A stretch of 27,098 bases of DNA from Bacteroidales bacterium (GCA_028282585.1 JANQHR010000009.1:1-27098), one strand, 5' to 3'; positions 2,604 to 23,924 are shown, counted from the first letter of the stretch. Numbers and translations are program-made. The notes: a model not told the origin generated them from the sequence alone.

Positions 2604-2611
2604 TAATTTTG
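2604..2611 (+). promoter_or_regulatory. -7 box (TAATTTTG) for moeA-moaA-moaC
   Basis: TAnnTTTG match 15 nt before ATG 2627. It overlaps the ORF-track TTG start, which argues for 2627 as the true start. Confidence 0.55.
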
Positions 2612-2626
2612 CCCAAAACTTTTATA

Positions 2627-3796
2627 ATGATAACCATAGAACAAGCATACGATATAGTCCTTAGAAACACTTATCAGTTAGGAACTGAAAAAGTTTCTTT
2701 TACCAATTCGTTAGGAAGAATTTTAGCTGAAAATGTTCATTCCGATATTGAAATGCCTCCTTTTGATAAATCGGCAATGGATGGTTATGCCTGTAGGAAA
2801 GAAGATCTGGATAATCTATTGGAGGTCGTAGAAGTTATTCCTGCCGGTAAAACCCCAGAAAAGAAAATTAGCAAAAACCAGTGTGCTAACATTATGACAG
2901 GAGCTCCTATACCGGAAGGTGCCGATATGGTTGTGCAGGTCGAATTGACTGAAATGAATGGCAACTTTGTAAAAGTTTTGGAGACTCCTAAAAAAAATAA
3001 TATAAGTTATCAGGGTGAAGATGTTAAAGCCGGAGCTAAGGTTTTAGGAAAGGGGATAAAAATAGAAGCTCAGCATATAGCTGTTTTTGCAGCAGTTGGT
3101 TATACTAATGTTTTGGTTTATAAACAACCTAAAGTTGGAATTATTTCAACTGGAGATGAGTTGGTGGAACCACAAAATAAACCATCCATTTCTCAAATAA
3201 GAAATAGTAATGGCTATCAGTTAATTGGACAGGTAAAAGCTTGTGGTGCAATTGCAAACTATATAGGAATTGCAGAAGACACTCCCGAAGATACTTTGGA
3301 TAAAGTAAGTAATGCTTTAAATGAAAATGATATTGTATTACTTACCGGTGGGGTTTCAATGGGATCATTCGATTTTGTACCAAAAGTTTTGGAAGATGCA
3401 GGAGTAAAGATTGATTTTGATGCGATAGCAGTTAAACCAGGAAAACCAACCACTTTTGGAATGGCAGGTAAGAAATTTTGTTTTGGTTTACCCGGAAATC
3501 CTGTTTCGTCATTTATGCAGTTCGATTTATTGGTAAAGCCATTAATTTACAATTTAATGGGGCAGGAATATAATGCGATGGATATTCAAATGCCAATGGG
3601 AATTGAATTAAAAAGAAAAAATGCTGACCGAAGAGCATATTTCCCGATAATAATAAAAAACGGGCACATATTTCCTGTTGATTATCATGGTTCGGCTCAT
3701 ATACATGCCTTATCTTCGGCGCACGGAATTATTTCCATGGAAATAGGGAAAGAAGAGATTAAGAAAGGAGAAATGGTTCATGTTCGACAGATTTAA
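2627..3796 (+). CDS. moeA: Molybdopterin molybdenumtransferase MoeA (gephyrin-like)
   Basis: PPFDKSAMDGYA, IMTGAPIPEGAD, STGDEL, RNSN, TGGVSMG..DFVP, KPGKP and GLPGNPVSS motifs. Confidence 0.96.
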   Translation: MITIEQAYDIVLRNTYQLGTEKVSFTNSLGRILAENVHSDIEMPPFDKSAMDGYACRKEDLDNLLEVVEVIPAGKTPEKKISKNQCANIMTGAPIPEGADMVVQVELTEMNGNFVKVLETPKKNNISYQGEDVKAGAKVLGKGIKIEAQHIAVFAAVGYTNVLVYKQPKVGIISTGDELVEPQNKPSISQIRNSNGYQLIGQVKACGAIANYIGIAEDTPEDTLDKVSNALNENDIVLLTGGVSMGSFDFVPKVLEDAGVKIDFDAIAVKPGKPTTFGMAGKKFCFGLPGNPVSSFMQFDLLVKPLIYNLMGQEYNAMDIQMPMGIELKRKNADRRAYFPIIIKNGHIFPVDYHGSAHIHALSSAHGIISMEIGKEEIKKGEMVHVRQI

Positions 3797-4580
3797 CCGA
3801 AAAATAAATTATTTAAGAATTTCAGTTACTGATAGATGCAATTTACGTTGTATTTATTGTATGCCCGAAGAAGGCGTGAAATTACTTTCTCACCAGGATA
3901 TTTTAACTTTCGATGAAATTGTTGAGGTTACAAAAGCAGCTGTTCGTAAAGGTGTTGATAAAATTAGAATAACAGGAGGCGAACCATTAGTTCGAAAGGG
4001 CATTGTTGATTTAGTTGAAATGATTGGTAAAATTGAAGGAATTAAAGATTACTCCATAACTACCAATGCTATTCTTTTGGATAAGTTTGCTGACGATTTA
4101 GCTAAAGCGGGCTTGCAAAGGGTAAATATAAGCCTTGATACTCTAAATCCTGAAAAGTTTAAAGAATTAACCAGAGGAGGTGATATTCAAAAAGTTTTTG
4201 ATGGAATTGAAGCTGCAAAAAAAGCAGGTTTAGAACCAATAAAAGTTAATTGTGTGATCAAGGAATCTGATCTGGAACAGGATGCTGTTGAGGTAGCTGA
4301 ATATTGCAAAAAAAACGGATTACAAATTCGGTTTATTAAAGAAATGGATTTGGAAACTGGTGAATTCGGAGTAGTTCAAGGTGGATCAGGTGGAGATTGT
4401 GGGACTTGCAACAGAATTCGCTTAACGGCAAATGGTACAATTAAACCTTGCTTATTTAGTGATATCTCTTATAGTGTAAGAAAATTAGGGGCTGAAAGAG
4501 CAATTGATTTGGCTATAGGAAATAAACCACAGTCGGGGCATACAAATATTACTGGCAAATTCTATAACATTGGAGGTTAA
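3780..4580 (+). CDS. moaA: GTP 3',8-cyclase MoaA (radical SAM), short form; overlaps moeA by 17 nt
   Basis: YLRISVTDRCNLRCIYCMP (CxxxCxxC), IRITGGEP, RVNISLDTL, Cx2Cx13C (CGTCNRIRLTANGTIKPC) and C-terminal GG. Confidence 0.94.
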   Translation: MFDRFNRKINYLRISVTDRCNLRCIYCMPEEGVKLLSHQDILTFDEIVEVTKAAVRKGVDKIRITGGEPLVRKGIVDLVEMIGKIEGIKDYSITTNAILLDKFADDLAKAGLQRVNISLDTLNPEKFKELTRGGDIQKVFDGIEAAKKAGLEPIKVNCVIKESDLEQDAVEVAEYCKKNGLQIRFIKEMDLETGEFGVVQGGSGGDCGTCNRIRLTANGTIKPCLFSDISYSVRKLGAERAIDLAIGNKPQSGHTNITGKFYNIGG

Positions 4581-4591
4581 ATGGTTAAAAA

Positions 4592-4665
4592 TTTCAGGTT
4601 TCAAGTTTCAAATTATGACTAACTTGCAATCCGAAATTTTAAATCCGAAATTTTAAATCTGAAAT
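4592..4665. repeat. Inverted pair of heptamer tandem arrays in the moaA-moaC spacer
   Basis: TTTCAGG TTTCAAG TTTCAAA (4592-4612) faces AATCCGAAATTTTA x2 + AATCTGAAAT (4628-4665). The two arrays are imperfect reverse complements. Confidence 0.75.
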
Positions 4666-5121
4666 ATGGGAAAGTTAAGTCATGTTGATGAAAAAGGTAA
4701 AGCCAATATGGTTGATGTTGGTGCAAAAGATGATCAAAAGAGAATTGCAAAAGCGACAGGTCATATTTCTTTGAGACCTGAAACCATTCAGTTGATCAAA
4801 GATAATTCGATGAAAAAGGGCGATGTATTAACCATAGCAGAGGTTGCAGGAATTCAGGGTGGCAAAAGGACAAGTGAATTAGTTCCATTGTGCCATCCAT
4901 TGCAAATTACCAAGCTAGATGTTAAGGCTACAATTGATGCAACAGGAGTAAGGGTAAATTCAGAAGCTCGCTGTATTGGTAAAACAGGAATTGAAATGGA
5001 AGCTTTAACGGCAGTTTCTGTTGCATTGCTTACTGTTTACGATATGTGCAAAGCAGTAGATAAGGAAATGAATATTGATGAAGTTAAGTTAATTGAAAAA
5101 ACTAAATCAGATATGCAATAG
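4666..5121 (+). CDS. moaC: Cyclic pyranopterin monophosphate synthase MoaC
   Basis: LSHVD..G.ANMVDV, KKGDVL, LVPLCHPL, TGIEMEAL and YDMCKAVD motifs. Confidence 0.97.
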   Translation: MGKLSHVDEKGKANMVDVGAKDDQKRIAKATGHISLRPETIQLIKDNSMKKGDVLTIAEVAGIQGGKRTSELVPLCHPLQITKLDVKATIDATGVRVNSEARCIGKTGIEMEALTAVSVALLTVYDMCKAVDKEMNIDEVKLIEKTKSDMQ

Positions 5122-5164
5122 CTTATTCTGGTTTTGGAAACTTACTTTAGGCCATTTGAGAGCC

Positions 5165-6238
5165 TTATATTTCTCTTAATTCACCAATTACCGGAAGCTC
5201 AATTTTAACTCCTTTAGCTTCAGATGCAGATTTTGCTCTTTCTATTGGTTCTTTCCATGGGTGGATACTTAGTTTAAATTTACTCCAATGTATAGGAAGG
5301 AATAAATCTCCTTTCAAATCAATATGTGCATCTACCGATTGTTCTGGCATAGCATGAATCTGAGACCAGTTTTCATTGTATTGACCACACTCAATACAAG
5401 TCAAGGCAAAAGGGCCATATTTACTCCCAATCTCCTTGAAATGTTTTCCGTAACCCGAATCTCCTCCAAAAAATATGCTTTGTTCCCCGGATTGAATAAC
5501 CCATGAACACCACTGAGTTTTATCTCTGTCCTTGGTTCCGCGCCCTGAAAAATGACGGGCAGGAGTTGATATAAATTTTAACGTTGAATCAATTTCAATA
5601 AACTCATACCAATCAACAACTTCTATTTTATCTTTCGAAATTCCCCACCTCAGTAAATGAGCATTAACACCAAGCGGTACAATAAATTTCTTTGTTTTTG
5701 AATCAATATGCTGAATGGTTCTATAATCTAAATGGTCATAATGGTCATGTGTAATTAGCACTACATCAATATCTGGTAAAACATCTACATTATAATTATT
5801 TACAAAATCGAAAGCTTTGTTAAAAATAGGAACCGGAGATGCTGCTTTGGAAAATACAGGATCGGTAACGATTATCTTGCTATTAATATTAAATAATACA
5901 GTTGAATGACCAAACCAGGTATAAGTGATTCCGGAATCTTTCTTTAAAAATGCTTCTTTATTAAAAATAATCGATTCAATAGGCTCCTGAGGTTTATCAT
6001 CTTTTACACCGGCAATAAACTTTTTAAGTACTTTTCCCATAGATTCACCAGTCATCATTTGGGTGGGCTCCATATTTAGAAATTTACCATCCTTATAATG
6101 TGGCGATGATTCAATTTTTGTTCTATTAAATTTATCAGGTTTACCTCCAAATGTAGGATGAAACTTTATAAATAGATTTATACACAGGATAATAAAAACA
6201 ATTGCTGATATGATAATTATAATGGACATCTTTTTCAT
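5165..6238 (-). CDS. MBL-fold metallo-hydrolase, NAPE-PLD/RomA-like, N-terminally anchored
   Basis: TWFGHST, TDPVF, THDHYDHLD (HxHxDH), PARHFSGR, GGDSGY and PIHWS motifs; hydrophobic N-terminus. Confidence 0.9.
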   Translation of the reverse strand: MKKMSIIIIISAIVFIILCINLFIKFHPTFGGKPDKFNRTKIESSPHYKDGKFLNMEPTQMMTGESMGKVLKKFIAGVKDDKPQEPIESIIFNKEAFLKKDSGITYTWFGHSTVLFNINSKIIVTDPVFSKAASPVPIFNKAFDFVNNYNVDVLPDIDVVLITHDHYDHLDYRTIQHIDSKTKKFIVPLGVNAHLLRWGISKDKIEVVDWYEFIEIDSTLKFISTPARHFSGRGTKDRDKTQWCSWVIQSGEQSIFFGGDSGYGKHFKEIGSKYGPFALTCIECGQYNENWSQIHAMPEQSVDAHIDLKGDLFLPIHWSKFKLSIHPWKEPIERAKSASEAKGVKIELPVIGELREI

Positions 6239-6278
6239 TTAGCTTTTTAAATTATGATTAACGAGTTTAAACCTTGAT

Positions 6279-7205
6279 TTAACTCAAAGCCAAAATAGCT
6301 TTTCCTTTTCTTATTCCTTCCACTTTACATGATATTTTTTCAGGAAAGTCTGTTTTAAAGTATGTTAAATTCGATCGTACTTTGGTTTCAATTCCATAAA
6401 TATCTTTAACAATAATTACAAACTCTTTCTTTCCAAGAGGGTCTTTTTCTTCGATGGTTTTAAGATATTTAAATTTATAACTCTTACCAACTTTATAGTG
6501 TGGATGAACAGGTTCTATTTTTAGGTGGCCATCAGTATGGTATTTTGTAACCGTACATTCAACTTTTTGATTGATCTTAAATTCATAGTGCTGGTACATA
6601 TCTTTTTTCAAAGAATATGAATTATCAAAATCATCTTTTAAAATGTAATAATCATAATCTTCTTCAAGCTTTTTAATATCAGCAACTTTAAAACAATAAT
6701 TCTTTCCGATCCTGAGCCGGGTTTTTTGTTGAGATTCAGGAATTGATAAAAAAAGTTCGCCTTTTTTTATTCTTAATACCTTGCACTTAATGCTGGTTTC
6801 GTTCTGTTCTACTTCAAAATCAACAGGTAAGGAGCAAGTTAATTCAATTCCAAACTTATCTTTTACAACGGCGGCTTTTTCTTCTTCTCCTACAGAATTT
6901 ACTTGGTCAATTATCTTGATTAGCTCAAAACCATAAATTTCCCCCTCTTTGTAAATTGGATTTTCAGGTTCAAGATATATCTTTCCACTACAATTTATTT
7001 TATCGATCTTACACTGAATGGTCTGGTCCTTTTGAAGGTCATAGTGTTTATAATGAATGGTTTTTAAAAGGTGCTTTCCTCCAAAAGGATTGATCAAAAT
7101 ATAAAAAGATTCATCTGTTCCCGGGATTTCAGTGTATCCCGTTATTTTAAACTGGTGTATTTCACCTTCGGTGAACTTATATTGGTTTTGATTTTTCATT
7201 TGCAT
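6279..7205 (-). CDS. Hypothetical protein made of four ~75-aa S1/OB-fold-like repeats
   Basis: Intact 308-aa ORF. Recurring unit x-G-(E/K)-x-Y-x-F ... D-x-F-G ... C-K-V ... G-x-h-x-L. The fold call is an inference. Confidence 0.7.
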   Translation of the reverse strand: MQMKNQNQYKFTEGEIHQFKITGYTEIPGTDESFYILINPFGGKHLLKTIHYKHYDLQKDQTIQCKIDKINCSGKIYLEPENPIYKEGEIYGFELIKIIDQVNSVGEEEKAAVVKDKFGIELTCSLPVDFEVEQNETSIKCKVLRIKKGELFLSIPESQQKTRLRIGKNYCFKVADIKKLEEDYDYYILKDDFDNSYSLKKDMYQHYEFKINQKVECTVTKYHTDGHLKIEPVHPHYKVGKSYKFKYLKTIEEKDPLGKKEFVIIVKDIYGIETKVRSNLTYFKTDFPEKISCKVEGIRKGKAILALS

Positions 7206-7272
7206 TGTAAAAATAAGGTTTTTAGGTTTCTAAACATATATCAAAATTCAATGTTTAAAACTTAGATTTTAT

Positions 7273-7280
7273 TACTTTTG
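7273..7280 (+). promoter_or_regulatory. -7 box (TACTTTTG) for the MOSC-MogA gene
   Basis: TAnnTTTG match 22 nt before ATG 7303. Confidence 0.55.
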
Positions 7281-7302
7281 TGTCAATTCAAAACTTTTAA
7301 GA

Positions 7303-8235
7303 ATGAGTGAGATTAAAGTAGTTTCGGTAAATATTTCAGAGGAAAAAGGTGTAATTAAAAAACCTGTTGAAAAAATCTTTTTAAATGAAAAGGGAGTAGA
7401 AAAGGATGCTCATGCAGGAGATTGGCACAGACAAGTTAGTTTACTGGCGAAAGAAAGTATTGATAAGTTTGAAGAGGTTCTTGGAAGAAAACTGGAATAC
7501 GGTGAGTTTGCAGAGAATATAACTACAGAAGGGATCACCCTTTTTAAAACAAAACCTGGTGATAGAATATATATTGGAGATGTAGAATTAGAGGTAACTC
7601 AAATTGGAAAAAAATGCCATGGTGATGGTTGTGCAATTTTTAGCCAGGTAGGAAAATGTGTTATGCCAAAAGAAGGCATATTTGCTAAAGTTTTGAAAAC
7701 GGGAGAAGTTAAGCCCAATGATACAATTAAATATCTTCCTAAAGTAATCAAGATTTTAATTGTTACACTAAGTGATCGTGCAAGCAAAGGAGAATACGAA
7801 GATAAAAGTGGTCCAAAGATCTACGAAATGGTTACCAACTATTACAAAACCATTGAAATGGAGCATTTAATTGATCATAAAATTATTCCGGATGATGCTG
7901 ATCAATTAAAAAAAATACTTGAAACAGCAAAAGAGGACATGTGTGATGTGATCATTACTACCGGAGGTACGGGAATTGGACCGAGAGATATCACTGTGGA
8001 AACCGTTCAGGAGCTATTAGATAAAGAAATTCCAGGCATAATGGAGATGATTCGTAGTAAGTATGGGAAAGAAAAACCAAATGCATTATTAAGCAGGGGA
8101 GTTGCAGGAGTGATGGGAGGTAGTTTGGTTTATTCTTTACCTGGCAGTGTAAAGGCAGTTCAGGAATATATGACTGAAATCTTAAAAACGGTTCAACATT
8201 TAATATATATGTTACACGGAATTGATGCACATTGA
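7303..8235 (+). CDS. Fusion of an N-terminal MOSC domain and a C-terminal MogA/MoaB molybdopterin adenylyltransferase
   Basis: N-half: DAHAG.WHRQVSLL, FAENITT, TQIGKKCH..GCAIF..VGKCVMPKEGIFAKV. C-half: TLSDR...Y.DKSG, IPDD, TTGGTG.GPRD.T, LSRG, LPGS. Confidence 0.92.
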   Translation: MSEIKVVSVNISEEKGVIKKPVEKIFLNEKGVEKDAHAGDWHRQVSLLAKESIDKFEEVLGRKLEYGEFAENITTEGITLFKTKPGDRIYIGDVELEVTQIGKKCHGDGCAIFSQVGKCVMPKEGIFAKVLKTGEVKPNDTIKYLPKVIKILIVTLSDRASKGEYEDKSGPKIYEMVTNYYKTIEMEHLIDHKIIPDDADQLKKILETAKEDMCDVIITTGGTGIGPRDITVETVQELLDKEIPGIMEMIRSKYGKEKPNALLSRGVAGVMGGSLVYSLPGSVKAVQEYMTEILKTVQHLIYMLHGIDAH

Positions 8236-8236
8236 T

Positions 8237-8244
8237 TATATTTG
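8237..8244 (+). promoter_or_regulatory. -7 box (TATATTTG) for the HDIG gene
   Basis: TAnnTTTG match just after the upstream stop codon, 34 nt before ATG 8279. Confidence 0.45.
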
Positions 8245-8278
8245 AGGTACCTAAATCAAACCTAAAATTAAGAGAATT

Positions 8279-8833
8279 ATGGGCAGAAATGAAGCTGAAA
8301 GCCTTCTAAAGAAGTATGTACGCAACGAAAAAATGCTATGCCATTGTTATGCTTCTGAAGCAGTAATGCGTGCTTTAGCTAATAAACTTGGTCACGATGA
8401 AGAAAAATGGGCTCTTGCTGGATTGTTGCACGATATTGATACTGAAATTACAAATGCCGATCCACAAAAACATGCTTTAGTTGCAGAAGAACTCCTACGT
8501 GATGAGGGACTTGAGGAAGATATTTTGGATGCTATTAAAATGCATAATAAGCATGCCACCGGTCAAGAGCGAACCACAGAATTTCAGCATGCACTAGCAG
8601 CCGGAGAAACAATTACAGGTCTTATTTATGCAACAGCTTTGGTTTATCCTGAGAAAAAAATTAAGGGCGTTAAAGTTAAATCAGTAACTAAACGGATGAA
8701 ACAAAGTGCGTTTGCTGCGTCAGTAAGTCGAGAGAATATAATGGAATGCGAAAAAATAGGGCTTCCTTTAAGCGAATTTACAGAGATTGCATTGAATGCA
8801 ATGAAGGAAATAGCTCCTAAAATAGGTCTTTGA
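8279..8833 (+). CDS. HD/HDIG-superfamily predicted hydrolase
   Basis: HCYASEAVMRALA, W.LAGLLHDID, H and KRMK..AFAA.VSRE motifs. Confidence 0.88.
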   Translation: MGRNEAESLLKKYVRNEKMLCHCYASEAVMRALANKLGHDEEKWALAGLLHDIDTEITNADPQKHALVAEELLRDEGLEEDILDAIKMHNKHATGQERTTEFQHALAAGETITGLIYATALVYPEKKIKGVKVKSVTKRMKQSAFAASVSRENIMECEKIGLPLSEFTEIALNAMKEIAPKIGL

Positions 8834-8926
8834 CCTTGAAATACCTAAGATAAAAATAAAGCGCTACAAATCAACATGTTAATTGAATGGTGCAAAAACT
8901 TAATATTGCCAATTAGATATTTTTCA

Positions 8927-8934
8927 TATATTTG
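8927..8934 (+). promoter_or_regulatory. -7 box (TATATTTG) upstream of mobA
   Basis: TAnnTTTG match; implies a leader of roughly 85 nt. Confidence 0.5.
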
Positions 8935-9022
8935 ATTTGTAAAATCTGTTGCGAATTTTATTCATCTTACAAAACTACTACAACATTAGAGAGCGAGCGT
9001 TTTATTAACTAAAATAAACGTT

Positions 9023-9643
9023 ATGGAAGCATTTAAGGAGCACAACAAGGTTTCAGCAGCTATCATGGCTGGAGGGGCTAACAAAAGGTTTCATGGTAAA
9101 ACTAAAGCTAATATTCAAATCAGTGGAGTTCGCATAATAGCACGGACGGTTAAGGTTTTACATGAGTTATTTGATGATATTATTATTGTTACAAATACTC
9201 CGGAAGAATTTAAAGCTTATCAGAGTTTTAATTTAGTTCCTGATGAAATAAAAAATGTTGGACCGTTGGGAGGAATTCATGCAGCAATGAAAGTTGCTAG
9301 AAATGATGCTATATTTATATTTGCAAGTGATATGCCCTGCATTTCAAGTGAAATTGTAAAAAAGCATATAGAATTTTATCATAAAAGAAAGTGTGATGCA
9401 GCCATTCCAAGAATTAAAGACTTTAAGGAACCTTTGCATTCAATTTATAATAAGAGAGTTTTCGGCAAATTGGATGAATTTATAAGAGGTAGTAACAAAT
9501 ATTCCATTGAAAATTTTTTAAAGACCCTAAATGTAAGGTATCATAATCTGGAAGATACAGATGAATATAAAAAAGCCTTTATCAATATTAATACTCCGCA
9601 AGATTTATCGTGTATGGAGCTATATGTTTCAGCGCACCATTAA
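9023..9643 (+). CDS. mobA: Molybdenum cofactor guanylyltransferase MobA-like nucleotidyltransferase
   Basis: IMAGG.NKRF.G..KA, GPLGGIHAA, SDMP, EPLHSIY and F.NINTP.DL motifs. Confidence 0.88.
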   Translation: MEAFKEHNKVSAAIMAGGANKRFHGKTKANIQISGVRIIARTVKVLHELFDDIIIVTNTPEEFKAYQSFNLVPDEIKNVGPLGGIHAAMKVARNDAIFIFASDMPCISSEIVKKHIEFYHKRKCDAAIPRIKDFKEPLHSIYNKRVFGKLDEFIRGSNKYSIENFLKTLNVRYHNLEDTDEYKKAFININTPQDLSCMELYVSAHH

Positions 9644-10012: not shown

Positions 10013-11512
10013 TTATAAATTTTTCGTTTTATAAGTTTTTTCTCTTTCCTTCGCTTTTTCCTTCCAAACAGGAACAATTTCTTCTAGGAATCTTTGCTTA
10101 TCCGCTTCCATTTTTTCAATATCTAAACCGATATATTTCTGAGCTTTCTCCTTGTTAGATATATCCGGATATGGAACTTCTTTATTATATCCTAAAGAAG
10201 CTAATAATCTGGCTAATTTTAACCGTGCATCATGAGCAGCATCTAATCCGGTTCCTAGAATTCTTGCAGATTCAATAGGAGCATGGAACGATCCTCCATG
10301 GCTTGCTGCCACATAGTCCCAACGCCATTGTGCATGCCTGATATCAATTAAAATATCCTTCATTTGTTCTTCTTTAGCGCCAAGTTCCCAAGCTTTACCT
10401 GCTTCAATGTGAGCACGAACAAGTAAATCCTCCAAATAGTTTCTTGTTTGTTTTATTTTATCCTGTCGCTCATATACATTAGAAAGTAACTCTTGAGTTT
10501 CTTCTCTATGGCAAACCTGGCATGTATTAGCAATATTATTTAATGGGCTTTGTACTTGATGGTCCGTAAATTTTTGTCCACCTTCATTAATGTATGGCAT
10601 ATGACAATCGGCACAAGCAAGCCCGCGTTGAGCATGAATTCCGGCTTGGAATAGTTCAAAATCAGGATGTTGAGCTTTCAGCATGGGAGCTTTACTAATT
10701 GGATGTATCCAATCTTTAAATTCGTATTCATCGTAATATGCTTCCATTGCTTCGGCAGTTAATCCTTTTTCCCATGGGAATATTAAATATTTACCTTCGC
10801 CGAAATAATATTCAACATGGCACTGGGCACACACTAGTTGGCGCATATCCTGGTGGCTTACACTGTTAATATCAATTCCCATTTTATCATAAGCTTCTAC
10901 TAATGCAGGTCTGGAAATTCTCAGATTCATATTTTGTGCATCATGACAATCGGCACAACCTATATTATTTACAACCTCATGCCCTAAAGTTTCCCATGAT
11001 CCTTTATAAAATTCAGCTACTCCCATTTCTTGCATTAATCTCGGTACATCAGGGCTCTTACAGGTCCAGCAAGTATTTGGCATTGGACTTTTTTTACCAT
11101 CAATTGGAGCTCCTGTCCTGTGTATTTTATACATATCCGGAATAGCATGTTCATGACCTTTCCCCTGATTATATGCTTTCGAGAAACCATATCCAGCCCA
11201 TAGAATTACTAACCGGGGATCTTCTTCAAGCATATCCCGGTGTGCGCTTCCATTATGTTTACTTTTAAATGATTGATCTTTGGTTTGAAGGAAACTATTG
11301 TACTGGCGAGGAAAGTTTTCTCCCCAAACTTCATTTCTAGGTTCCCATTGCGAATGTTCAATTTTTGGGGTATAAGCAAAAACTGCTTCAGCTCGGCGTT
11401 CTATTATTGAAGAAGCTAATAAACCTAAACAAAAAACAATGATAATGGTAACTAGAAAAAGTATCCAACCTTTCCAGGGTTTTTCTTTGATTTGATCGGT
11501 AAATGGTTTCAT
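10013..11512 (-). CDS. nrfA: Ammonia-forming pentaheme cytochrome c nitrite reductase NrfA
   Basis: CWTCK (Lys-ligated heme 1), CADCH, CAQCHVEYYF, CADCHMP and CQVCH; KAQHP and ASHG..FHAP motifs. Confidence 0.97.
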   Translation of the reverse strand: MKPFTDQIKEKPWKGWILFLVTIIIVFCLGLLASSIIERRAEAVFAYTPKIEHSQWEPRNEVWGENFPRQYNSFLQTKDQSFKSKHNGSAHRDMLEEDPRLVILWAGYGFSKAYNQGKGHEHAIPDMYKIHRTGAPIDGKKSPMPNTCWTCKSPDVPRLMQEMGVAEFYKGSWETLGHEVVNNIGCADCHDAQNMNLRISRPALVEAYDKMGIDINSVSHQDMRQLVCAQCHVEYYFGEGKYLIFPWEKGLTAEAMEAYYDEYEFKDWIHPISKAPMLKAQHPDFELFQAGIHAQRGLACADCHMPYINEGGQKFTDHQVQSPLNNIANTCQVCHREETQELLSNVYERQDKIKQTRNYLEDLLVRAHIEAGKAWELGAKEEQMKDILIDIRHAQWRWDYVAASHGGSFHAPIESARILGTGLDAAHDARLKLARLLASLGYNKEVPYPDISNKEKAQKYIGLDIEKMEADKQRFLEEIVPVWKEKAKEREKTYKTKNL

Positions 11513-11533
11513 ATAGTTTGATTTTTAATATTC

Positions 11534-12115
11534 TTATTCTTCAGTTAATTCTTTAATCCATTCAGGTACCGGGCTTTTTGGCAGTGGAGCTATTGCGTTA
11601 GGGACAATTGATAAGCTATTGATTCTGCCATGAGGAGTTTCACGATGACACTCCCAACAAAGCCTTGATTCGCGTTCGGAATGAAAATCTTGATTATTTA
11701 TTTTTTGCTGGGCAGTTAAAAGTAAATGTTCATGACACCTAACGCAGTTTTGCTGTACAACCTTAATTCCCGCATCTTTCATTTGTATTACTTGAGGTTC
11801 TGCTCTTAATGAAAATATAGTTGCATGTCGTAAACCATCTTTTGCCTTAAAGTAATAATGAGAAATGAAATTATCATGCGGAACGTGGCAATCATTACAA
11901 CTGGCAACTTCTCTATGCGAACTATGGTTCCATGTAGCAAATTGCGGAACCATTATATGGCAGTTAATGCAGGTTTGAGGATTGTCTGATAAATAAGACC
12001 CGGCCTTAGAAAGATAAACTGAGTAAAAAAACAAACCAAGAAAAATACCTAAAACAATTGTTACGGGTAATTTCCATTGGTCAGGTGGGATTATTTTACG
12101 TAAAAATAAAATCAT
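11534..12115 (-). CDS. nrfH: Tetraheme quinol dehydrogenase NrfH (start 12115 preferred; 12130 possible)
   Basis: One TM helix, then CINCH, CNDCHVP, CVRCH and CWECH..PHG; immediately upstream of nrfA. Confidence 0.95.
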   Translation of the reverse strand: MILFLRKIIPPDQWKLPVTIVLGIFLGLFFYSVYLSKAGSYLSDNPQTCINCHIMVPQFATWNHSSHREVASCNDCHVPHDNFISHYYFKAKDGLRHATIFSLRAEPQVIQMKDAGIKVVQQNCVRCHEHLLLTAQQKINNQDFHSERESRLCWECHRETPHGRINSLSIVPNAIAPLPKSPVPEWIKELTEE

Positions 12116-12224
12116 AATATGATGATTCAAAAGTTTTACATAAAATACGAATAAAAGTAATTAATTGCTATAAATCTTTTATTATTCTGCTCAATTTAAA
12201 ATCAGTCTAATAATAGATAGGTAA

Positions 12225-17398: not shown

Positions 17399-20300
17399 AT
17401 GAGAAAATTACTACTTTCCTGTTTATTATTATTTCTATTTACTTCAAATTCTTTGGCTCAAGAATGGATAGAATTGGGGAAACAATCTTCTTTTAGATAC
17501 AATAACAATGCTAATCAGCATTACGGAGAATCTGTTTCGGTCGATGGTGATTATGCAGTTGTAGGTGGTCATCATTTTTTCAATAGTCCGGGAAATGCTT
17601 ATGTATTATTTTTTAATGGAGCAAATTGGGAAAAAATTGCCAAACTAACACCTTCTTATAGAAATACATATAAGTTTGGATGTTCTGTGAGTATTTCCGG
17701 AGATATTATTGTTATTGGGGCATATGATACTTTTACGTCAGGCGAAAATTCAGGGGCTGTTTTTGTTTATAAAAAGCCTGTAACTGGTTGGGAAGATATG
17801 ACCGAGACTGCCATGCTTTTAGCTTCAGATCGTGCGAATCAAGATTATTTTGGAAGTTCAGTTAGAATTAAGGGAGATAATATAGTAGTAGGTGCATATG
17901 GTGATGATGATAATGGTGAGCAAAGTGGTTCTGTTTATGTATTTAGTAAACCAACTGATGGCTGGAAGGATATCGAAGAAACGGCAAAACTTAAACCAAC
18001 TGATGGAGCGAGTAATGATGATTTCGGGAGATCAGTGGCAATTTCAGAAGATTATATTATAGTTGGGGCAAACGGATGTGATGTTAATGGAAATAAAAGT
18101 GGATCTGCATACATATTTGAAAAACCAATTGATGGTTGGAAGGATATTTCAGAAACAGCCAAATTATCTACTACTGATGGTGTTGATGGAGATTATTTTG
18201 GATATTCAATAGATATATCGGGAGATTATATTGTTGTAGGGGCTTACAGAGATGATGATAATGGAGAAGAAAGTGGGTCAGCATATTTATATAAAAAACC
18301 AGCAAGTGGCTGGACTGACAAAACAGAAGATGCTAAATTATTGCCTTCAGATGGAGATTTAGATGAGGCTTTCGGTTATTCTGTAAGTATTTCTGGCGAT
18401 AATATTGTTGTTGGTGCATATTGGGATAATGAAAATGGAAATAAGAGTGGTTCTGCTTATATTTTTGAAAAACCAATAACAGGATGGGAAAACATGACAG
18501 AGACAGCAAAATTTTTAGCTTCGGATGGTGCGGCCTTGGACAACTTTGCAAGTTCTGTTTTTATTTCAGAAGATAATGTATTCATCGGTGCTTCTGAAAA
18601 TGATGGTTCTGAATATAATAGTGGTTGTGTTTATATATTTAAAAAACCAGTAGGTGGATGGGAAAATTCAACAGAAACTTTTAGAACATATCCAGTAGCT
18701 TTCTCAAATGAGTTTAACGATTATGGAAAAGTTTCAATAGATGGAAATTATTGTGTTGTTGGATCACCTCATGTAAAAAATGGAGAAGGTTGTGCATATG
18801 TTTTTTACTTTAATGGTACAAGTTGGATTCAAAAAGGAATATTAACTGCATATAATGGAAGAGAAGATGATAACTTCGGGCATTCCGTTAGCATTTCAGA
18901 CGATATAATTGTGATTGGAGCTAAGTATGGAGATGTTAACCATGATAATAGTGGATCTGTATATGTTTTTAAAAAACCTGCCGGTGGATGGAAAAGTATG
19001 ACTGAATCAGCTGAATTAACTTCATCAGCGAGTGCAACAAATCAATGGTTTGGGTCAAGTGTAGCGGTATATGGAGATAATATTGTTGTAGGTGCGTATG
19101 GTGATAACTCGGTTTTTGTTTTTGAAAAACCTGAGAGTGGTTGGGCTGATATGACTGAATCGGTTAAACTAACTGCTTCAGATGGAAATACAGATGATTT
19201 ATTCGGTTATAGCGTAGATATTTTTGATACGGAAATTATTGTGGGAGCTTACAACAATGATAACAAAGGTTCTGCATATGTTTATACAAAACCTGAGAGT
19301 GGTTGGATAGATATTACAGAAGCTGCTAAGTTAGAAGCATCAGATGGTTTATTAGATGATTATTTTGGATACTCGGTTAGTATATCAGAAGATGTAATAG
19401 TAGTTGGAGCATATGGCGATGATGATTTCGGTAATAATAGTGGATCAGCTTATATTTTTGAAAAACCTAAGAATGGTTGGATAAATAGCAATGAAACGAT
19501 GAAAATAAATGCTTCAGATGGTAAAGTTGAAGATTATTTTGGGCATTCGGTTAGTGTTGCCGGGTCTCATATGATTATTGGTGCATCAGGAGATGATGAT
19601 TTAGGTAATGAAAGTGGTTCTGTATATGTATATGAAAAACTAGCCAATGGATGGGTAAATGACACCGAAACTTTTAAATTAACTGCATCTGATGGTAGCG
19701 AAAATGGAAAATTAGGCTCTTACCTTGATGTTTCTAATGAAATTTTTGTTGTTGCGGCACCATGGAATAATGATGTTTTTACCAATCAGGGCTCAGTCTA
19801 TTTATTTAAATGTAATAAGTATTTCAATGTAAGCGATGTAGAAGTTTGTTCTGAAGATGATGCTACCTTTATTTTAGAATCAAATAATGTATTAGGGCAA
19901 ATAACATATCAGTGGCAGGTAAAAAATAATGATAACTGGGAAAATTTAACTGATGAGACTAATGATACGCTTATTATTAGGAATGTAGCACTGGGTTTAA
20001 GTAATAATAAATATCGTTGTATAATTTTTGGAGCAGATACTGATACAAGTGAAGTTGCTACATTATCAATAAAACCTTCATACTATATTTATGAAGATGT
20101 TATAGTTTGTGAAGGTGAAAGCTATACTTTCCCAGATGGAGCTACAGAAAATAATATAACAACGCAAATTGTTCACGTAAGTAACTTACAAACTATTTTA
20201 AGTTGTGATAGTATCATTGAAACTAAAGTCAACGTAATTCCACCAAATAAACATGCCGATACAGTTTCCATTTGTTATGGTTCAAGTTTTACTTTTCACG

Positions 20301-23300
20301 ATGGTACTACACAAGATAGCATCACATCACAACTAACTCATGAGAACATTTTTGTTAGTGTTTTGGGTTGCGATAGCATTATTTCAACCACTGTAATTGT
20401 TAATCCGGATTATGATTTAAAAGAAACCGTTTCAATTAATGGGGGAGAGAATTATATATTTCCGGATGGTACAATTCAAAATAATATTGATTCTAAAGTT
20501 GTTCATAAAAGCTACTTAAAGTCAGTTGCCGGATGCGATAGTATTATAGAGACAATAGTCTACCCAAGTTATTTATCGCCAGCTACACCTTTTACTCGAT
20601 ATTTGAAATATAATAAAGGTTTAAGCACTGGTTACGGAACTAGTGTAATTGAAACTGGCAATAATGAACTCTTTATTGTAGGGATTAATGGACGAAGTGG
20701 TGATTATACAAATCATGGTTCAATGTACCTAATTAAAACAGATAGTTTGGGTAATGAAATTTGGAGTAAGATATATAATGAAAATTATGTTACTTATGGA
20801 CTCCAAGGATTATCTACTCAAGATGGTGGTTTTGTTGTCTTGGGCAGAACAGAATTAGTTGATGATGGCCCTTGGAGAAATGTATTAGTAAAACTTTCCA
20901 ATGATGGTGACATTATTTGGACGAAACAATATGGAGATTCAATATATGTAGAATGTTTTTATGAAACCTTGGATAATGGTTATATTATGGCTGGTGGAAG
21001 TGGTGATCTAGTTAAAACTGATGAGTTTGGCGAGATTGAATGGTATAAAGATAAGGATGATCATGGTTATAATGATCCCATGGATATTATCCAGTTAAAG
21101 GATTCAACATATGCTAGTGCAAACAAAGGAGGTGTATCAGGTTATAGTAAACTCGGAGTTGAAGAGTGGCAATATGATTATATTTCCGGGGGGTATTATA
21201 TCGACGATTTTCATTCTCTTGTTGAAACAACTGACAGTTGTATTATTGCTGTTGGGGAGTGTGAAAAGACAGGAGAACTAAATGTTGTAAAATTAGAAAC
21301 GAATGGAGAGCTGGTTTGGCAGAAGTTATTTCCTTACCAGGCTTCTTATAATTTTGATTATTATGCAAGGCCGGTTACTATAACAAAAACAGGCGATGGC
21401 AATTTTTACATCGGATTTAAATCATCTGGAATGAAAATTATAAAGATTGATACTGATGGGAATGAGATCCCTGTTCAATTTGAATATGGCGAAGGAATAA
21501 ATATTAATGATATTATCGAGACTAAAGATAAAGGAATAGTTTGTATTAGCAGTTTAAAGGGTAATAGTGCAAGGTGGAGGTATTTTATGATGATGAAATT
21601 TGACAATCAAGGAAATAGATGCCATAATTATATTACTACCCATACAGAAACGATTAATCAAGGCGAATATGCTTCTTTTAATACAGATGCTACTGATGTT
21701 TTATTCTGGAGTATTAATAACGTAGAAATACCATTTACAAATACAACTGAATTTAGCACAAATTATATTGTTGATCAGGATGTTATTATGTGTGAAAGCC
21801 TAGGCTGTACTTCCGAAAACTGGATAAAGATGAGAGTAACCACAAACGATTATTCATATAATTCAGTTCTTTGCGAAGGAGAAGAATTTACTTATTCGCT
21901 TTTAAATCAAAAAGATGGAGTAACTTTTCAATGGCAAGAAAATACAGGTAGTTCATGGTTGGATATTTATGGAGAAACGAATGATACCCTAATTATTCCA
22001 AATGTAACTTTAGATATGGATGGCTATCAGTATCGTTGTATAATTTCAGGTACTGAAAATGACACAAGCGAAGTTGTTACGTTAACTGTAAATCCTACGT
22101 ATGATTTAACCGAAACGGTAACAATAAATAGTGGAGAAGATTATAAGTTCCCTGATGGAACGGTTCAAGAGGATATAACATCGCAGGTAGTTCATACAAG
22201 TAATTTGCAAAGCGTTTTTGGTTGCGATAGTGTTATCGAAACAACTGTAAATGTTGGTTGTATGGCATATAACTTATCTGAATCGGTTTCAGTTTGTTAT
22301 GGTGGAAGCTATAAATTTCCTAGTGGTATGGTTATCGCGAATATAACCTACAATTTTCTGTATACAAGCAATTTAGTATCATCTCTTGGCTGCGATAGTA
22401 TCATCGAAACAACAATAAATGTGAAACCGGTTTATAATTTAACTGAAACTATAACTATAAATAGTGGCGATGATTATACCTTCCCTGATGGAACAATACA
22501 GACCAATATTACCTCGCAAGTTGTTTATACAAGTTGTTTACAGTCCGTTTTTGGTTGTGATAGCATAATTGAAACTACTATAAATATACATGTTGGTTGT
22601 ATGGCATATAACTTATCCGAATCGGTTTCGGTTTGTTATGGTGGAAGCCATAATTTCCCGGATGGTACTATTCAACAGAATATAACTTCTGATCTTATTT
22701 ATAAAAGTTATTTAGTATCATCCTTAGGCTGCGACAGTATTATTGAAACAACATTAAATGTTATCAACTCTACGAATTCGACGTTGGATATTTCGACTTG
22801 TAATAGCTATACTTCACCAAGCGGTAAAATTTTAAGTTCTACCGGGATTTATTATGATACAATTCCAAATCATATGGGGTGTGACAGTATTATAACAATT
22901 AATATGGAAATTAATGATCATATGGAAACAAGTATGTCGGCAACGATCTGCGAAGGAGAATCTTATTTATTTTTTGGCACTCGCCTGGATGAAGAAGGTG
23001 AATATGAGTATGAAGAAAAATCCGGAACATGCAGCCATAAGTATTTATTAGATCTTGATGTAATTGATAAGCCGGAAAAACCTTCTAAACCTGATGGAAA
23101 ATCTAAGTTGTGTGTTAACCCAGGAGGTGAAATATATACGACTGAATCAAATCATGCTACTTATTTTGAATGGTCACTTGAACCCAAAGAGGCAGGAATT
23201 ATTTATGACGATGATGAATTTATAAGTGTTTTTTGGTCTAATGATTTCTCAGGAAAAGCATATTTGTCCGCTAAATCGTTCAATAAATGTGGTGAGAGTA

Positions 23301-23818
23301 ATTTTTCTGACTCCTTGGAAATTATCATCCAACCAAACCCCGAAGCAGATTACACTTTTGAAAGGAACCAACTTGAGGTTTCGTTTATCAATTTATCTTC
23401 AGATGCTGAATCTTATCAGTGGCAAATGGGTGACGGAAATAGTATAAACACTTCAGAAACAGACCGTTTTTCTTATACTTTTAAATCTTCAGGTACATTT
23501 GATGTTGTTTTAGTAGCAAGAAGCTATATCTGTGAGGATATTTCTACTATTACCCAGCCGGTAGCTGTTTCATTAACGACAAGTATATATGATATCGGGA
23601 ATGAGCTAAGCGTTTATCCTAATCCTGTAAATGACAGAATTTATATTGATTATGATAAAGGAGTATTTGTGGAATTTTACAATTTATTGGGTATAAAAGT
23701 TTTAGAATCAAGAAAAACGGAGATAGAAGTTGCTAACTTAATTAATGGAACCTACATCGCTTTAATAAAGAACGATAAAGGCGAATTAATCCAAAGAGTA
23801 AAGATAATTAAAGAATAA
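17399..23818 (+). CDS. Giant T9SS-secreted surface protein: 14 FG-GAP repeats, Ig-like, xCDS repeats, additional propeller-like region, Ig-like, xCDS repeats, PKD-like domains, type A CTD
   Basis: SPI signal ending SLA-Q; 14 FGxSV.I.G...VVGA units; two YQWQ/FQWQ...YRCII Ig units; eight xCDS(I/V)I repeats; YQWQMGDG PKD; VYPNP...GTYI..I......KIIKE. Confidence 0.93.
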   Translation: MRKLLLSCLLLFLFTSNSLAQEWIELGKQSSFRYNNNANQHYGESVSVDGDYAVVGGHHFFNSPGNAYVLFFNGANWEKIAKLTPSYRNTYKFGCSVSISGDIIVIGAYDTFTSGENSGAVFVYKKPVTGWEDMTETAMLLASDRANQDYFGSSVRIKGDNIVVGAYGDDDNGEQSGSVYVFSKPTDGWKDIEETAKLKPTDGASNDDFGRSVAISEDYIIVGANGCDVNGNKSGSAYIFEKPIDGWKDISETAKLSTTDGVDGDYFGYSIDISGDYIVVGAYRDDDNGEESGSAYLYKKPASGWTDKTEDAKLLPSDGDLDEAFGYSVSISGDNIVVGAYWDNENGNKSGSAYIFEKPITGWENMTETAKFLASDGAALDNFASSVFISEDNVFIGASENDGSEYNSGCVYIFKKPVGGWENSTETFRTYPVAFSNEFNDYGKVSIDGNYCVVGSPHVKNGEGCAYVFYFNGTSWIQKGILTAYNGREDDNFGHSVSISDDIIVIGAKYGDVNHDNSGSVYVFKKPAGGWKSMTESAELTSSASATNQWFGSSVAVYGDNIVVGAYGDNSVFVFEKPESGWADMTESVKLTASDGNTDDLFGYSVDIFDTEIIVGAYNNDNKGSAYVYTKPESGWIDITEAAKLEASDGLLDDYFGYSVSISEDVIVVGAYGDDDFGNNSGSAYIFEKPKNGWINSNETMKINASDGKVEDYFGHSVSVAGSHMIIGASGDDDLGNESGSVYVYEKLANGWVNDTETFKLTASDGSENGKLGSYLDVSNEIFVVAAPWNNDVFTNQGSVYLFKCNKYFNVSDVEVCSEDDATFILESNNVLGQITYQWQVKNNDNWENLTDETNDTLIIRNVALGLSNNKYRCIIFGADTDTSEVATLSIKPSYYIYEDVIVCEGESYTFPDGATENNITTQIVHVSNLQTILSCDSIIETKVNVIPPNKHADTVSICYGSSFTFHDGTTQDSITSQLTHENIFVSVLGCDSIISTTVIVNPDYDLKETVSINGGENYIFPDGTIQNNIDSKVVHKSYLKSVAGCDSIIETIVYPSYLSPATPFTRYLKYNKGLSTGYGTSVIETGNNELFIVGINGRSGDYTNHGSMYLIKTDSLGNEIWSKIYNENYVTYGLQGLSTQDGGFVVLGRTELVDDGPWRNVLVKLSNDGDIIWTKQYGDSIYVECFYETLDNGYIMAGGSGDLVKTDEFGEIEWYKDKDDHGYNDPMDIIQLKDSTYASANKGGVSGYSKLGVEEWQYDYISGGYYIDDFHSLVETTDSCIIAVGECEKTGELNVVKLETNGELVWQKLFPYQASYNFDYYARPVTITKTGDGNFYIGFKSSGMKIIKIDTDGNEIPVQFEYGEGININDIIETKDKGIVCISSLKGNSARWRYFMMMKFDNQGNRCHNYITTHTETINQGEYASFNTDATDVLFWSINNVEIPFTNTTEFSTNYIVDQDVIMCESLGCTSENWIKMRVTTNDYSYNSVLCEGEEFTYSLLNQKDGVTFQWQENTGSSWLDIYGETNDTLIIPNVTLDMDGYQYRCIISGTENDTSEVVTLTVNPTYDLTETVTINSGEDYKFPDGTVQEDITSQVVHTSNLQSVFGCDSVIETTVNVGCMAYNLSESVSVCYGGSYKFPSGMVIANITYNFLYTSNLVSSLGCDSIIETTINVKPVYNLTETITINSGDDYTFPDGTIQTNITSQVVYTSCLQSVFGCDSIIETTINIHVGCMAYNLSESVSVCYGGSHNFPDGTIQQNITSDLIYKSYLVSSLGCDSIIETTLNVINSTNSTLDISTCNSYTSPSGKILSSTGIYYDTIPNHMGCDSIITINMEINDHMETSMSATICEGESYLFFGTRLDEEGEYEYEEKSGTCSHKYLLDLDVIDKPEKPSKPDGKSKLCVNPGGEIYTTESNHATYFEWSLEPKEAGIIYDDDEFISVFWSNDFSGKAYLSAKSFNKCGESNFSDSLEIIIQPNPEADYTFERNQLEVSFINLSSDAESYQWQMGDGNSINTSETDRFSYTFKSSGTFDVVLVARSYICEDISTITQPVAVSLTTSIYDIGNELSVYPNPVNDRIYIDYDKGVFVEFYNLLGIKVLESRKTEIEVANLINGTYIALIKNDKGELIQRVKIIKE

Positions 23819-23924
23819 AAACTGCAATATAGTTTTGAAAAAATTGATGCATGGATAAAAAAGGATTTTAAAAATTATTTGTACAAACTGTTTTTGAATT
23901 TTGAAACTTTAGTTTATAATTAAT

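Follow-up and report, generated by a model that had tools for sequence, protein, structure and literature searches.

The stretch of DNA analysed here (27,098 nucleotides, GCA_028282585.1 JANQHR010000009.1:1-27098; in the following, the window) stems from a Bacteroidales bacterium and carries a gene cluster for the molybdenum cofactor (Moco), in which a cysteine-rich (Cys-rich) MOSC domain is fused to a MogA-type domain. It makes up the entire contig C15 of a 4.89-Mb assembly with 173 contigs and 98.35% completeness. Gene families were assigned with Pfam and NCBIfam models, which placed moeA, moaA, moaC, the MOSC-MogA fusion, an HD-domain gene and mobA at 2609-9643, all on the plus strand. The features of the cluster are as follows.

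2609..3796, plus strand: moeA, molybdo/tungsto-transferase for metal insertion (Pfam MoeA_N, MoCF_biosynth and MoeA_C)
3780..4580, plus strand: moaA, guanosine triphosphate (GTP) 3',8-cyclase, short form of 266 amino acids (aa) (TIGR02666, 297 bits, cut-off 284)
4666..5121, plus strand: moaC, cyclic pyranopterin monophosphate (cPMP) synthase (PF01967, 181 bits; TIGR00581, 191.6 bits, over the cut-off)
7303..8235, plus strand: MOSC-MogA fusion, 310 aa (PF03473 and PF00994)
7303..7743, plus strand: MOSC domain of the Cys-rich subfamily, at which cPMP is proposed to be converted to molybdopterin (PF03473)
7615..7659, plus strand: codons for C105-H106-x3-C110-x8-C119, the signature of the subfamily
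7744..8235, plus strand: MogA/MoaB-type molybdopterin adenylyltransferase domain (TIGR00177, 111.3 bits, cut-off 85.35; NF006932, 118 bits)
8279..8833, plus strand: HD-domain (HDIG) phosphohydrolase (PF01966, TIGR00277)
9023..9643, plus strand: mobA, molybdenum cofactor guanylyltransferase (PF12804; NF001457, 138.9 bits, under the cut-off of 164)

In the canonical second step of the pathway, two sulfurs are inserted into cPMP by MoaE with MoaD thiocarboxylate, and MoaD is activated by MoeB. Genome-wide gene searches were performed as six-frame profile searches. MoaE (PF02391) had no match in the genome, and neither MoaE nor ThiS/MoaD or ThiF/MoeB homologues were found on contig C15. MoaC, the MOSC domain and the MogA-type domain (that of the fusion) were each present as a single copy, and matches to MoCF_biosynth were obtained only for the fusion, moeA and a 416-aa frame on contig C106. 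Eight genes for pterin-dependent enzymes were detected, four of the dimethyl sulfoxide (DMSO)-reductase family and four of the aldehyde:ferredoxin oxidoreductase (AOR) family, and the genome therefore needs molybdopterin.

Elsewhere in the genome, profile search located two ThiS genes and three ThiF-family genes. Both ThiS genes (67 aa, GG end) are encoded on contig C92 together with two small ThiF_fam2 genes, each pair beside an AOR gene. The ThiS proteins scored 44.2 and 48.7 bits with TIGR01683 (cut-off 37.45), and all four aligned AOR-linked ThiS proteins terminate in GG. The two ThiF proteins of this contig passed NF006395 and TIGR02354 (ThiF family 2) and scored 71-75 bits with the MoeB model TIGR02355 (cut-off 376.55); the third ThiF-family protein, on contig C20, was best matched by TcdA (145 bits, under the cut-off), and none of the three reached the MoeB equivalog score. 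Since thiazole synthase (ThiG) was not found in the genome, a function of the ThiS/ThiF pairs in thiamine synthesis is unlikely. A role in tungsten cofactor synthesis was proposed for AOR-linked MoaD/MoeB-like pairs in the available part of Iyer et al. (PMC1779556). At C92 53163-60534 (locus L006), the arrangement consists of two tandem AOR (717 and 718 aa)-ThiF_fam2-ThiS modules with a DUF364 'heavy-metal chelation' gene between them.

An earlier note on this DNA had described moaA, moaC, a MogA domain, moeA and mobA as clustered, step-2 genes as absent from the 27 kb, and a Cys-rich MOSC domain as fused to MogA. All three statements agree with the assignments above. Its title, a pathway without MoaD, MoaE and MoeB, holds for MoaE throughout the genome and fails for the other two, as the genome-wide profile search that it had proposed returned the ThiS/ThiF-type carriers just described, none of them at MoeB level.

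Within the fusion, the MOSC match comprised residues 36-142 (PF03473, 50.2 bits, cut-off 22.7), and the motif K-K-C-H-G-D-G-C-A-I-F-S-Q-V-G-K-C contained C105, H106, C110 and C119. The three cysteines were conserved in 91 of 93 distinct sequences of the subfamily and H106 in all 93; across the 45 rows of alignment A2 the four residues were invariant. Further conserved positions were S12, K15-G16, K19, D35-x-H37, W41-H42-R43-Q44, F69-x-E71-N72, Q100-x-G102-K103 and M121-P122. C105 aligned with the cysteine of YiiM (5yhh) and is taken from this alignment to be the canonical MOSC cysteine. The MogA part was matched by MoCF_biosynth (PF00994) at residues 153-297 with 99 bits, and its translation contained the TTGGTG and PGS motifs, which we take as defining the MogA/MoaB family. 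The corresponding residues, T219-G224 and P280-S282, were invariant or nearly so in 57 fusions.

For structural comparison, AlphaFold2 models were computed for the fusion (mean predicted local distance difference test, pLDDT, 91.3) and for the MOSC domain alone (87.5). Foldseek matched the domain to YuaD (1oru, E 2.9e-9, template modelling score 0.78), YiiM (5yhh, E 9.2e-9) and mARC1 (6fw2, E 8.6e-5), and the modelled domain thus has the MOSC beta-barrel fold of these proteins. By sequence search no close solved structure was found; the best match was YiiM with E 0.033. Identity to YuaD, YiiM (5yhh, 5yhi) and mARC1 was 18-22%. In contrast to these, the window's domain possesses the invariant H106, C110 and C119 and the H37/W41-H42-R43-Q44 block, is devoid of a 3-alpha or MOSC_N domain, and is encoded in a biosynthetic gene context. 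The domain also matched the MOSC half of NF011069 (PRK14499), a MoaC/MOSC fusion model, with 190.5 bits (E 3.8e-56, model positions 162-306 of 308). This score was reached with the MOSC half alone and is below the whole-protein cut-off of 457. The subfamily is the same; the partner is MoaC there and MogA here. With MoaE the domain shares neither sequence nor fold, being a MOSC beta-barrel with three invariant cysteines; it is proposed to work like MoaE, not to be a member of that family.

At least 7884 protein clusters matched the MOSC part among 8000 candidates scored, and 116 of the 120 best listed clusters carried both PF00994 and PF03473. Two high-scoring proteins, P0017 and P0018 (305 and 309 aa, 52-53% identity), carried PF03473 only and may consist of two MOSC domains in tandem. 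Among named relatives, those closest to the fusion were from Bacteroidales and Marinilabiliales metagenome-assembled genomes (MAGs).

For the distribution within the same phylum, 401 genomes were each searched for the MOSC domain, MoaE and MoaC. The Cys-rich subfamily was defined by the E-values obtained with the MOSC query, which were bimodal (at most 1.2e-35 in 62 genomes including this one, at least 1.1e-11 in 19). MoaC was found in 218 and MoaE in 152 of the 401 genomes, and all 62 carriers of the Cys-rich MOSC domain had MoaC (62/218, about a quarter). The MoaC-positive genomes were distributed as follows.

MoaC-positive with MoaE (150 genomes): Cys-rich MOSC in 1, none in 149
MoaC-positive without MoaE (68 genomes): Cys-rich MOSC in 61, none in 7

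MoaE was not found in 61 of the 62 MOSC genomes, several of which are single-contig assemblies. The MoaE Pfam model matched in 11 of 14 control genomes, besides the 152 of the phylum. The 19 weak MOSC hits, which belong to other subfamilies, were accompanied by MoaE in 17 cases. Sister genera contrasted in MOSC versus MoaE inside the families f11, f25, f37 and f42; in f25, two genera had the MOSC domain (49 genomes) and a third had MoaE (10 MoaC-positive genomes). Family f33 was MOSC-only in the sample. The seven MoaC-positive genomes with neither gene were G256, G360, G364, G061, G144, G316 and G030; five of them were still negative by profile search, and in G256 moaC apparently does not lie among cofactor genes.

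A second phylum, that of one fusion-bearing genome, was analysed with 151 genomes, of which 142 were MoaC-positive. Here 65 carried the MOSC domain only, 55 MoaE only, 16 both and 6 neither, so that more than half (81/142) had the Cys-rich domain. The MoaE matches in the group with both were weak in 12 of 16 cases (E 1e-8 to 1e-14) and reached approximately 1e-20 to 1e-23 in the other four. For a check across phyla, 80 fusion-bearing loci were retrieved from a species-representative collection and 50 were traced to their genomes. These were labelled as Bacteroidota, Planctomycetota, Kiritimatiellota (Kiritimatiellales, Pontiellaceae), Hydrogenedentota, Myxococcota, Desulfuromonadales/'Deltaproteobacteria', Lentisphaerota (with Victivallales), Chlamydiota, Verrucomicrobiae and Ignavibacteriota, approximately nine phyla, and MoaE was not found in 49 of the 50, whose completeness was not given. 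The pattern of MOSC and MoaE is thus a strong either/or and not absolute.

In the 80 loci, the recurrent order was moeA-moaA-moaC-[MOSC-MogA], in many cases with the HD gene and mobA behind it. MoaC was encoded in 71 loci, MoaA in 65, MoeA in 58, the HD protein in 32, MobA in 27 and AOR in 7; no locus encoded MoaE, and across phyla the loci had no further unassigned gene in common. Locus L107 showed the compact order moaA-moaC-MOSC-moeA-mobA. In L108, ThiF_fam2-ThiS, AOR, three open reading frames (ORFs), possibly a transporter, and moeA-moaA-moaC-MOSC/MogA formed one 15-kb island. With MoaC as fusion partner in NF011069 and MogA in the window, the MOSC subfamily is joined to the enzymes on either side of the missing step.

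Two copy types were distinguished. A Cys-rich fusion like that of the window was present in 60 of the 80 loci. Another 16 contained a solo Cys-rich MOSC gene (approximately 148 aa) followed by a MOSC-MogA fusion in whose MOSC part none of the three cysteines was left (F in place of C105, Y in place of C119, C110 deleted) and H106 was kept; examples are L067 8001-9371, L073 6062-7430 and L087 8001-9375, with 13 further loci. The remaining four comprised one solo Cys-rich gene, two Cys-less fusions and one locus without a hit, and those checked were short or truncated. The Cys-rich MOSC copy is thus the constant element of these loci. The single fusion of the window looks like a solo copy joined directly to MogA.

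The favoured reading, to which we assign a probability of about one half, is that sulfur is inserted into cPMP by the Cys-rich MOSC domain, which would replace MoaE without being homologous to it. The argument for it is one of comparative genomics throughout: a MoaE substitute explains most simply why MOSC and MoaE are distributed as either/or, why the genes are ordered as they are and why the fusions occur. The proposed step is that of the E. coli-type MoaD2-MoaE2 complex with MoeB, and the MOSC gene is located between moaC and mogA/moeA. The window contains the sole route of the organism to a molybdenum/tungsten pterin cofactor, in which cPMP is made by MoaA and MoaC, molybdopterin is adenylated by the MogA domain, the metal is inserted by MoeA and guanosine monophosphate is added by MobA. 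For substrate, chemistry, sulfur donor and channelling of the missing step we infer the following scheme. The MOSC beta-barrel would bind cPMP in the manner in which the finished cofactor is bound by other MOSC domains, and C105, C110 and C119 would hold the incoming sulfur with H106, either by a persulfide relay or on a three-cysteine iron-sulfur cluster with one open iron carrying hydrosulfide. The sulfur might be supplied here by GG-ended ThiS, activated by the ThiF_fam2 enzymes beside the AOR genes, and in genomes devoid of ThiS by a cysteine desulfurase or free sulfide. The product molybdopterin would be handed to the fused MogA domain.

For the proposed chemistry, the C-terminal MOSC domain of the eukaryotic Moco sulfurase (ABA3/HMCS) is the nearest precedent. 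It is the scaffold on which the persulfide of a cysteine desulfurase gives up its sulfur to a pterin cofactor, as the terminal sulfido ligand on molybdenum, whereas the dithiolene is proposed as the target in the window's protein, which has no NifS-like domain. A looser analogy is given by the TtuA/NcsA-type sulfur transferases, PP-loop ATPases used by anaerobes that carry a three-cysteine [4Fe-4S] cluster and take sulfur from a ThiS-like thiocarboxylate or from sulfide. Three conserved cysteines are common to both, whereas the folds are unrelated and the cluster in the MOSC domain is a proposal.

With regard to the sulfur donor, ThiS/ThiF-type carriers were present in most MOSC genomes. A role of ThiS as obligatory partner was considered and is unsupported, as a ThiS-family match was absent in 4 of 61 MOSC genomes; in two more, the only match was weak and lay inside a frame of more than 700 aa, where it is taken to be a TGS domain. 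With at least 4 of 61 MOSC carriers thus having no ThiS/MoaD-family match, a thiocarboxylate carrier, in contrast to the MoaD-MoaE system, may be dispensable. According to the first residues of the ORFs beside ThiS, the surroundings in L104 look thiamine-type (ThiG/ThiH-like) and those in L121 and L122 resemble a sulfur-carrier amino-acid cluster. Because some MOSC genomes are without ThiS and the ThiS genes of other lineages look linked to thiamine or sulfur amino acids, a persulfide/sulfide route, perhaps via a three-cysteine cluster, would fit the whole family better than a ThiS donor. A complex prediction for the MOSC domain with AOR-linked ThiS gave a score of 0.00; it was run without controls and speaks neither for nor against binding. 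The wider proposal of a three-cysteine MOSC synthase operating in many anaerobes, independent of MoaE and in some lineages of MoaD, with sulfur from a bound persulfide or an iron-sulfur cluster in place of a protein thiocarboxylate, is put forward tentatively, at somewhat less than even odds.

Several observations weigh against the replacement of MoaE by the MOSC domain. The cysteine loop (residues 106-117) was the sole low-confidence part of the fusion model, and the geometry of the three cysteines is accordingly poorly defined by it. In the second phylum, 16 of the 81 MOSC-positive genomes also carried a MoaE homologue, and G234 and G444 likewise hold both. Genomes with MoaC and neither gene (7/218 in the own phylum, 6/142 in the second) imply that a third solution, or MoaC without the full pathway, exists. 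The sampled genomes are related and not independent, and Fisher values overstate the association and are not readable as probabilities; completeness was not reported for the second-phylum and fusion-bearing genomes counted. Geobacter sulfurreducens is listed with both mosC and moaE in the available part of PMC2700814. In the full-text literature, with subscription journals and supplements outside coverage, neither an experimental test nor a quantitative profile was found. FdhD was found in none of 61 MOSC genomes and in 19 of 60 MoaE genomes, which leaves room for a role in cofactor sulfuration. The profile of MOSC subfamily against MoaE that had been suggested in the earlier note was nevertheless strongly favourable (61 of 68 versus 1 of 150 in the own phylum), and an intact MoaE, which the note had named as evidence to the contrary, was found neither here nor in 49 of the 50 fusion genomes. 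Its reading of the MOSC domain as the synthase is therefore favoured by the distribution and qualified by the ThiS/ThiF-type carriers, by the lack of strict exclusion between MOSC and MoaE, and by a profile that records co-occurrence only.

The FdhD counts touch on one alternative, in which the target of sulfuration by the MOSC domain is the finished cofactor or the metal, by terminal sulfido transfer of the FdhD or Moco-sulfurase kind or by thiolation of molybdate/tungstate before insertion. In the eukaryotic Moco sulfurase, the MOSC domain is a scaffold for sulfur transfer. FdhD was not found in the genome studied here, in which two adjacent sets at C92 18984-28462, each a protein of approximately 900 aa with PF00384 and flanking ORFs that are NuoF/NuoE-like by their first residues, look like nicotinamide adenine dinucleotide (NAD)-linked formate dehydrogenases; the Geobacter annotation name 'mosC, molybdenum sulfurase' implies such a role as well. 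Yet in L052 and L047 the gene that immediately follows MOSC-MogA encodes FdhD, in coexistence within one operon, which weakens FdhD replacement as the main MOSC role. In family f25 the MoaE-positive genus is also without FdhD (0/5), so that MoaE switches with MOSC there and FdhD does not. Sulfuration would also leave the missing MoaE step unexplained; it is regarded as quite improbable. A role restricted to binding and handing over molybdopterin or the finished cofactor, in which the MOSC domain would serve MogA/MoeA as a carrier, a store or an insertion scaffold and another, unrecognised protein of MoaE-less anaerobes would insert the sulfur, is unlikely as well, though it deserves more weight. 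It would suit the genomes that hold MoaE and MOSC together and the 16 loci with a Cys-less fusion, where the fused copy may have a purely binding role, and characterised MOSC proteins bind Moco according to the available part of PMC10637980. It gives no reason, however, for the near-complementary distribution with MoaE or for a Cys-rich copy wherever the locus is complete, and none of the unassigned genes of the 80 loci recurs across phyla as the candidate it calls for.

A reading of the MOSC domain as a YiiM/YcbX/mARC-type reductase that depends on Moco, detoxifies N-hydroxylated compounds and is merely encoded with cofactor genes appears very improbable. The fold and the cysteine aligned with that of YiiM are compatible with it, and Peng et al. 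(2018; PMC6147048) count MOSC proteins as molybdoenzymes in the available part of their text. Against this, the protein has no electron-transfer partner domain, the subfamily has its own invariant Cys/His set and is fused to biosynthetic enzymes, and its distribution runs counter to that of MoaE, which accompanies 17 of the 19 weaker MOSC hits. Finally, MoaE might be present and missed, either in an assembly gap, the genome not being closed, or by divergence past the Pfam model. As MoaE was equally absent from 61 of the phylum's 62 MOSC genomes and from 49 of the 50 genomes with the fusion, and the model matched in 11 of 14 control genomes and the 152 of the phylum, there is next to no likelihood of this.

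The idea that a MOSC protein replaces MoaE is not new. Geobacter metallireducens was described with moaD, moeB and two mosC genes (Gmet_0302 and Gmet_2094) and without moaE, and the functioning of its nitrate reductase was called unexplained (Aklujkar et al. 2009, PMC2700814, available part). For Dehalobacter, MoaD/MoaE were not found and two MOSC proteins were suggested to possibly fulfil the synthase function (Tang et al. 2016, PMC4751268, available part); the 16 loci with two MOSC genes recall this pair. The Caldithrix and Dehalogenimonas papers (PMC5317091, PMC13390414) list MOSC genes in Moco clusters, with no comment in the parts available. In the published clusters of Geobacter metallireducens, Dehalobacter, Caldithrix abyssi and Dehalogenimonas, as far as those sources extend, a small MOSC gene lies beside moaA/moaC/moeA as it does here. 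They differ from the present case, a MOSC-MogA fusion in a Bacteroidota MAG, and a shared subfamily is suggested by gene context, not by comparison of the sequences. Cofactor clusters without MoaE are thus a class described before, to which the window adds a member from Bacteroidota in which MOSC is joined to MogA.

Added here are the quantified complementary distribution in two phyla with a cross-phylum check, the Cys-rich copy as invariant element, and the finding that a ThiS-type carrier is not always present. These counts turn a passing remark of two genome papers into a defined question with a named protein, a motif and candidate sulfur donors. The insertion of sulfur into cPMP is currently treated as universal MoaD/MoaE chemistry; replacement of MoaE by the MOSC domain, if true, would be a second, unrelated solution for a textbook step of a near-universal cofactor pathway. 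It would explain the 'incomplete' Moco pathways of Geobacter, Dehalobacter and many anaerobe MAGs. Completeness rules that demand MoaD/MoaE would then need change, as in PMC6147048, where, in the part available, a step-2 gene is required for pathway calls.

Further observations concern the remaining genes. The best NCBIfam matches of moeA were of MoeA type (NF011068, 323 bits; NF007960, 307 bits; both under their cut-offs), and its end overlaps the start of moaA by 17 bases. Aligned to a 331-aa MoaA, the short moaA product lacks approximately 43 residues ahead of the cluster motif at the C-terminus; it retains CxxxCxxC in the N-terminal part, CxxCx13C in the C-terminal part and GG at the end. 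L108 encodes the same short form, and MoaA has 331-334 aa in L104, L105, L106 and L107. The HD protein also matched the HD part of the DVU_1551-family nucleoside triphosphate (NTP) transferase model NF045665, which suggests that this phosphohydrolase, encoded between the fusion and mobA, may work with MobA. The plus-strand cluster is interrupted by two genes.

5165..6238, minus strand: metallo-beta-lactamase-fold protein
6279..7205, minus strand: 308-aa protein without a family

For the 308-aa protein, no Pfam or NCBIfam family was found and the Atlas matches were Bacteroidota hypothetical clusters only; in 19 of the 80 related loci its gene is conserved in divergent orientation ahead of that for MOSC. 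An ORF of 150-160 aa between moaC and the fusion in several loci was considered and set aside, since it was not found across phyla; its copy in L030 had no Pfam match and a hydrophobic-looking start. In one locus, from a Chlamydiota MAG (L063 3333-4145), a PP-loop ATPase gene directly follows the MOSC-MogA fusion and is a possible sulfur-transfer partner.

No Moco riboswitch or other RNA family was detected in the window at gathering score. The remaining ORFs of the window belong to unrelated families (TonB-dependent receptor, YidD, nrfHA, E1-type dehydrogenase, OsmC and FG-GAP proteins). On the minus strand at 10013-12130, shortly after the end of the cofactor cluster, are nrfA, for the nitrite reductase cytochrome c552, and an nrfH-like NapC/NirT cytochrome gene. 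Two very large FG-GAP repeat proteins are encoded at 17399-27098, one of more than 1058 aa that reaches the contig edge and one of 2139 aa that carries PKD domains and a type-IX secretion sorting tail.

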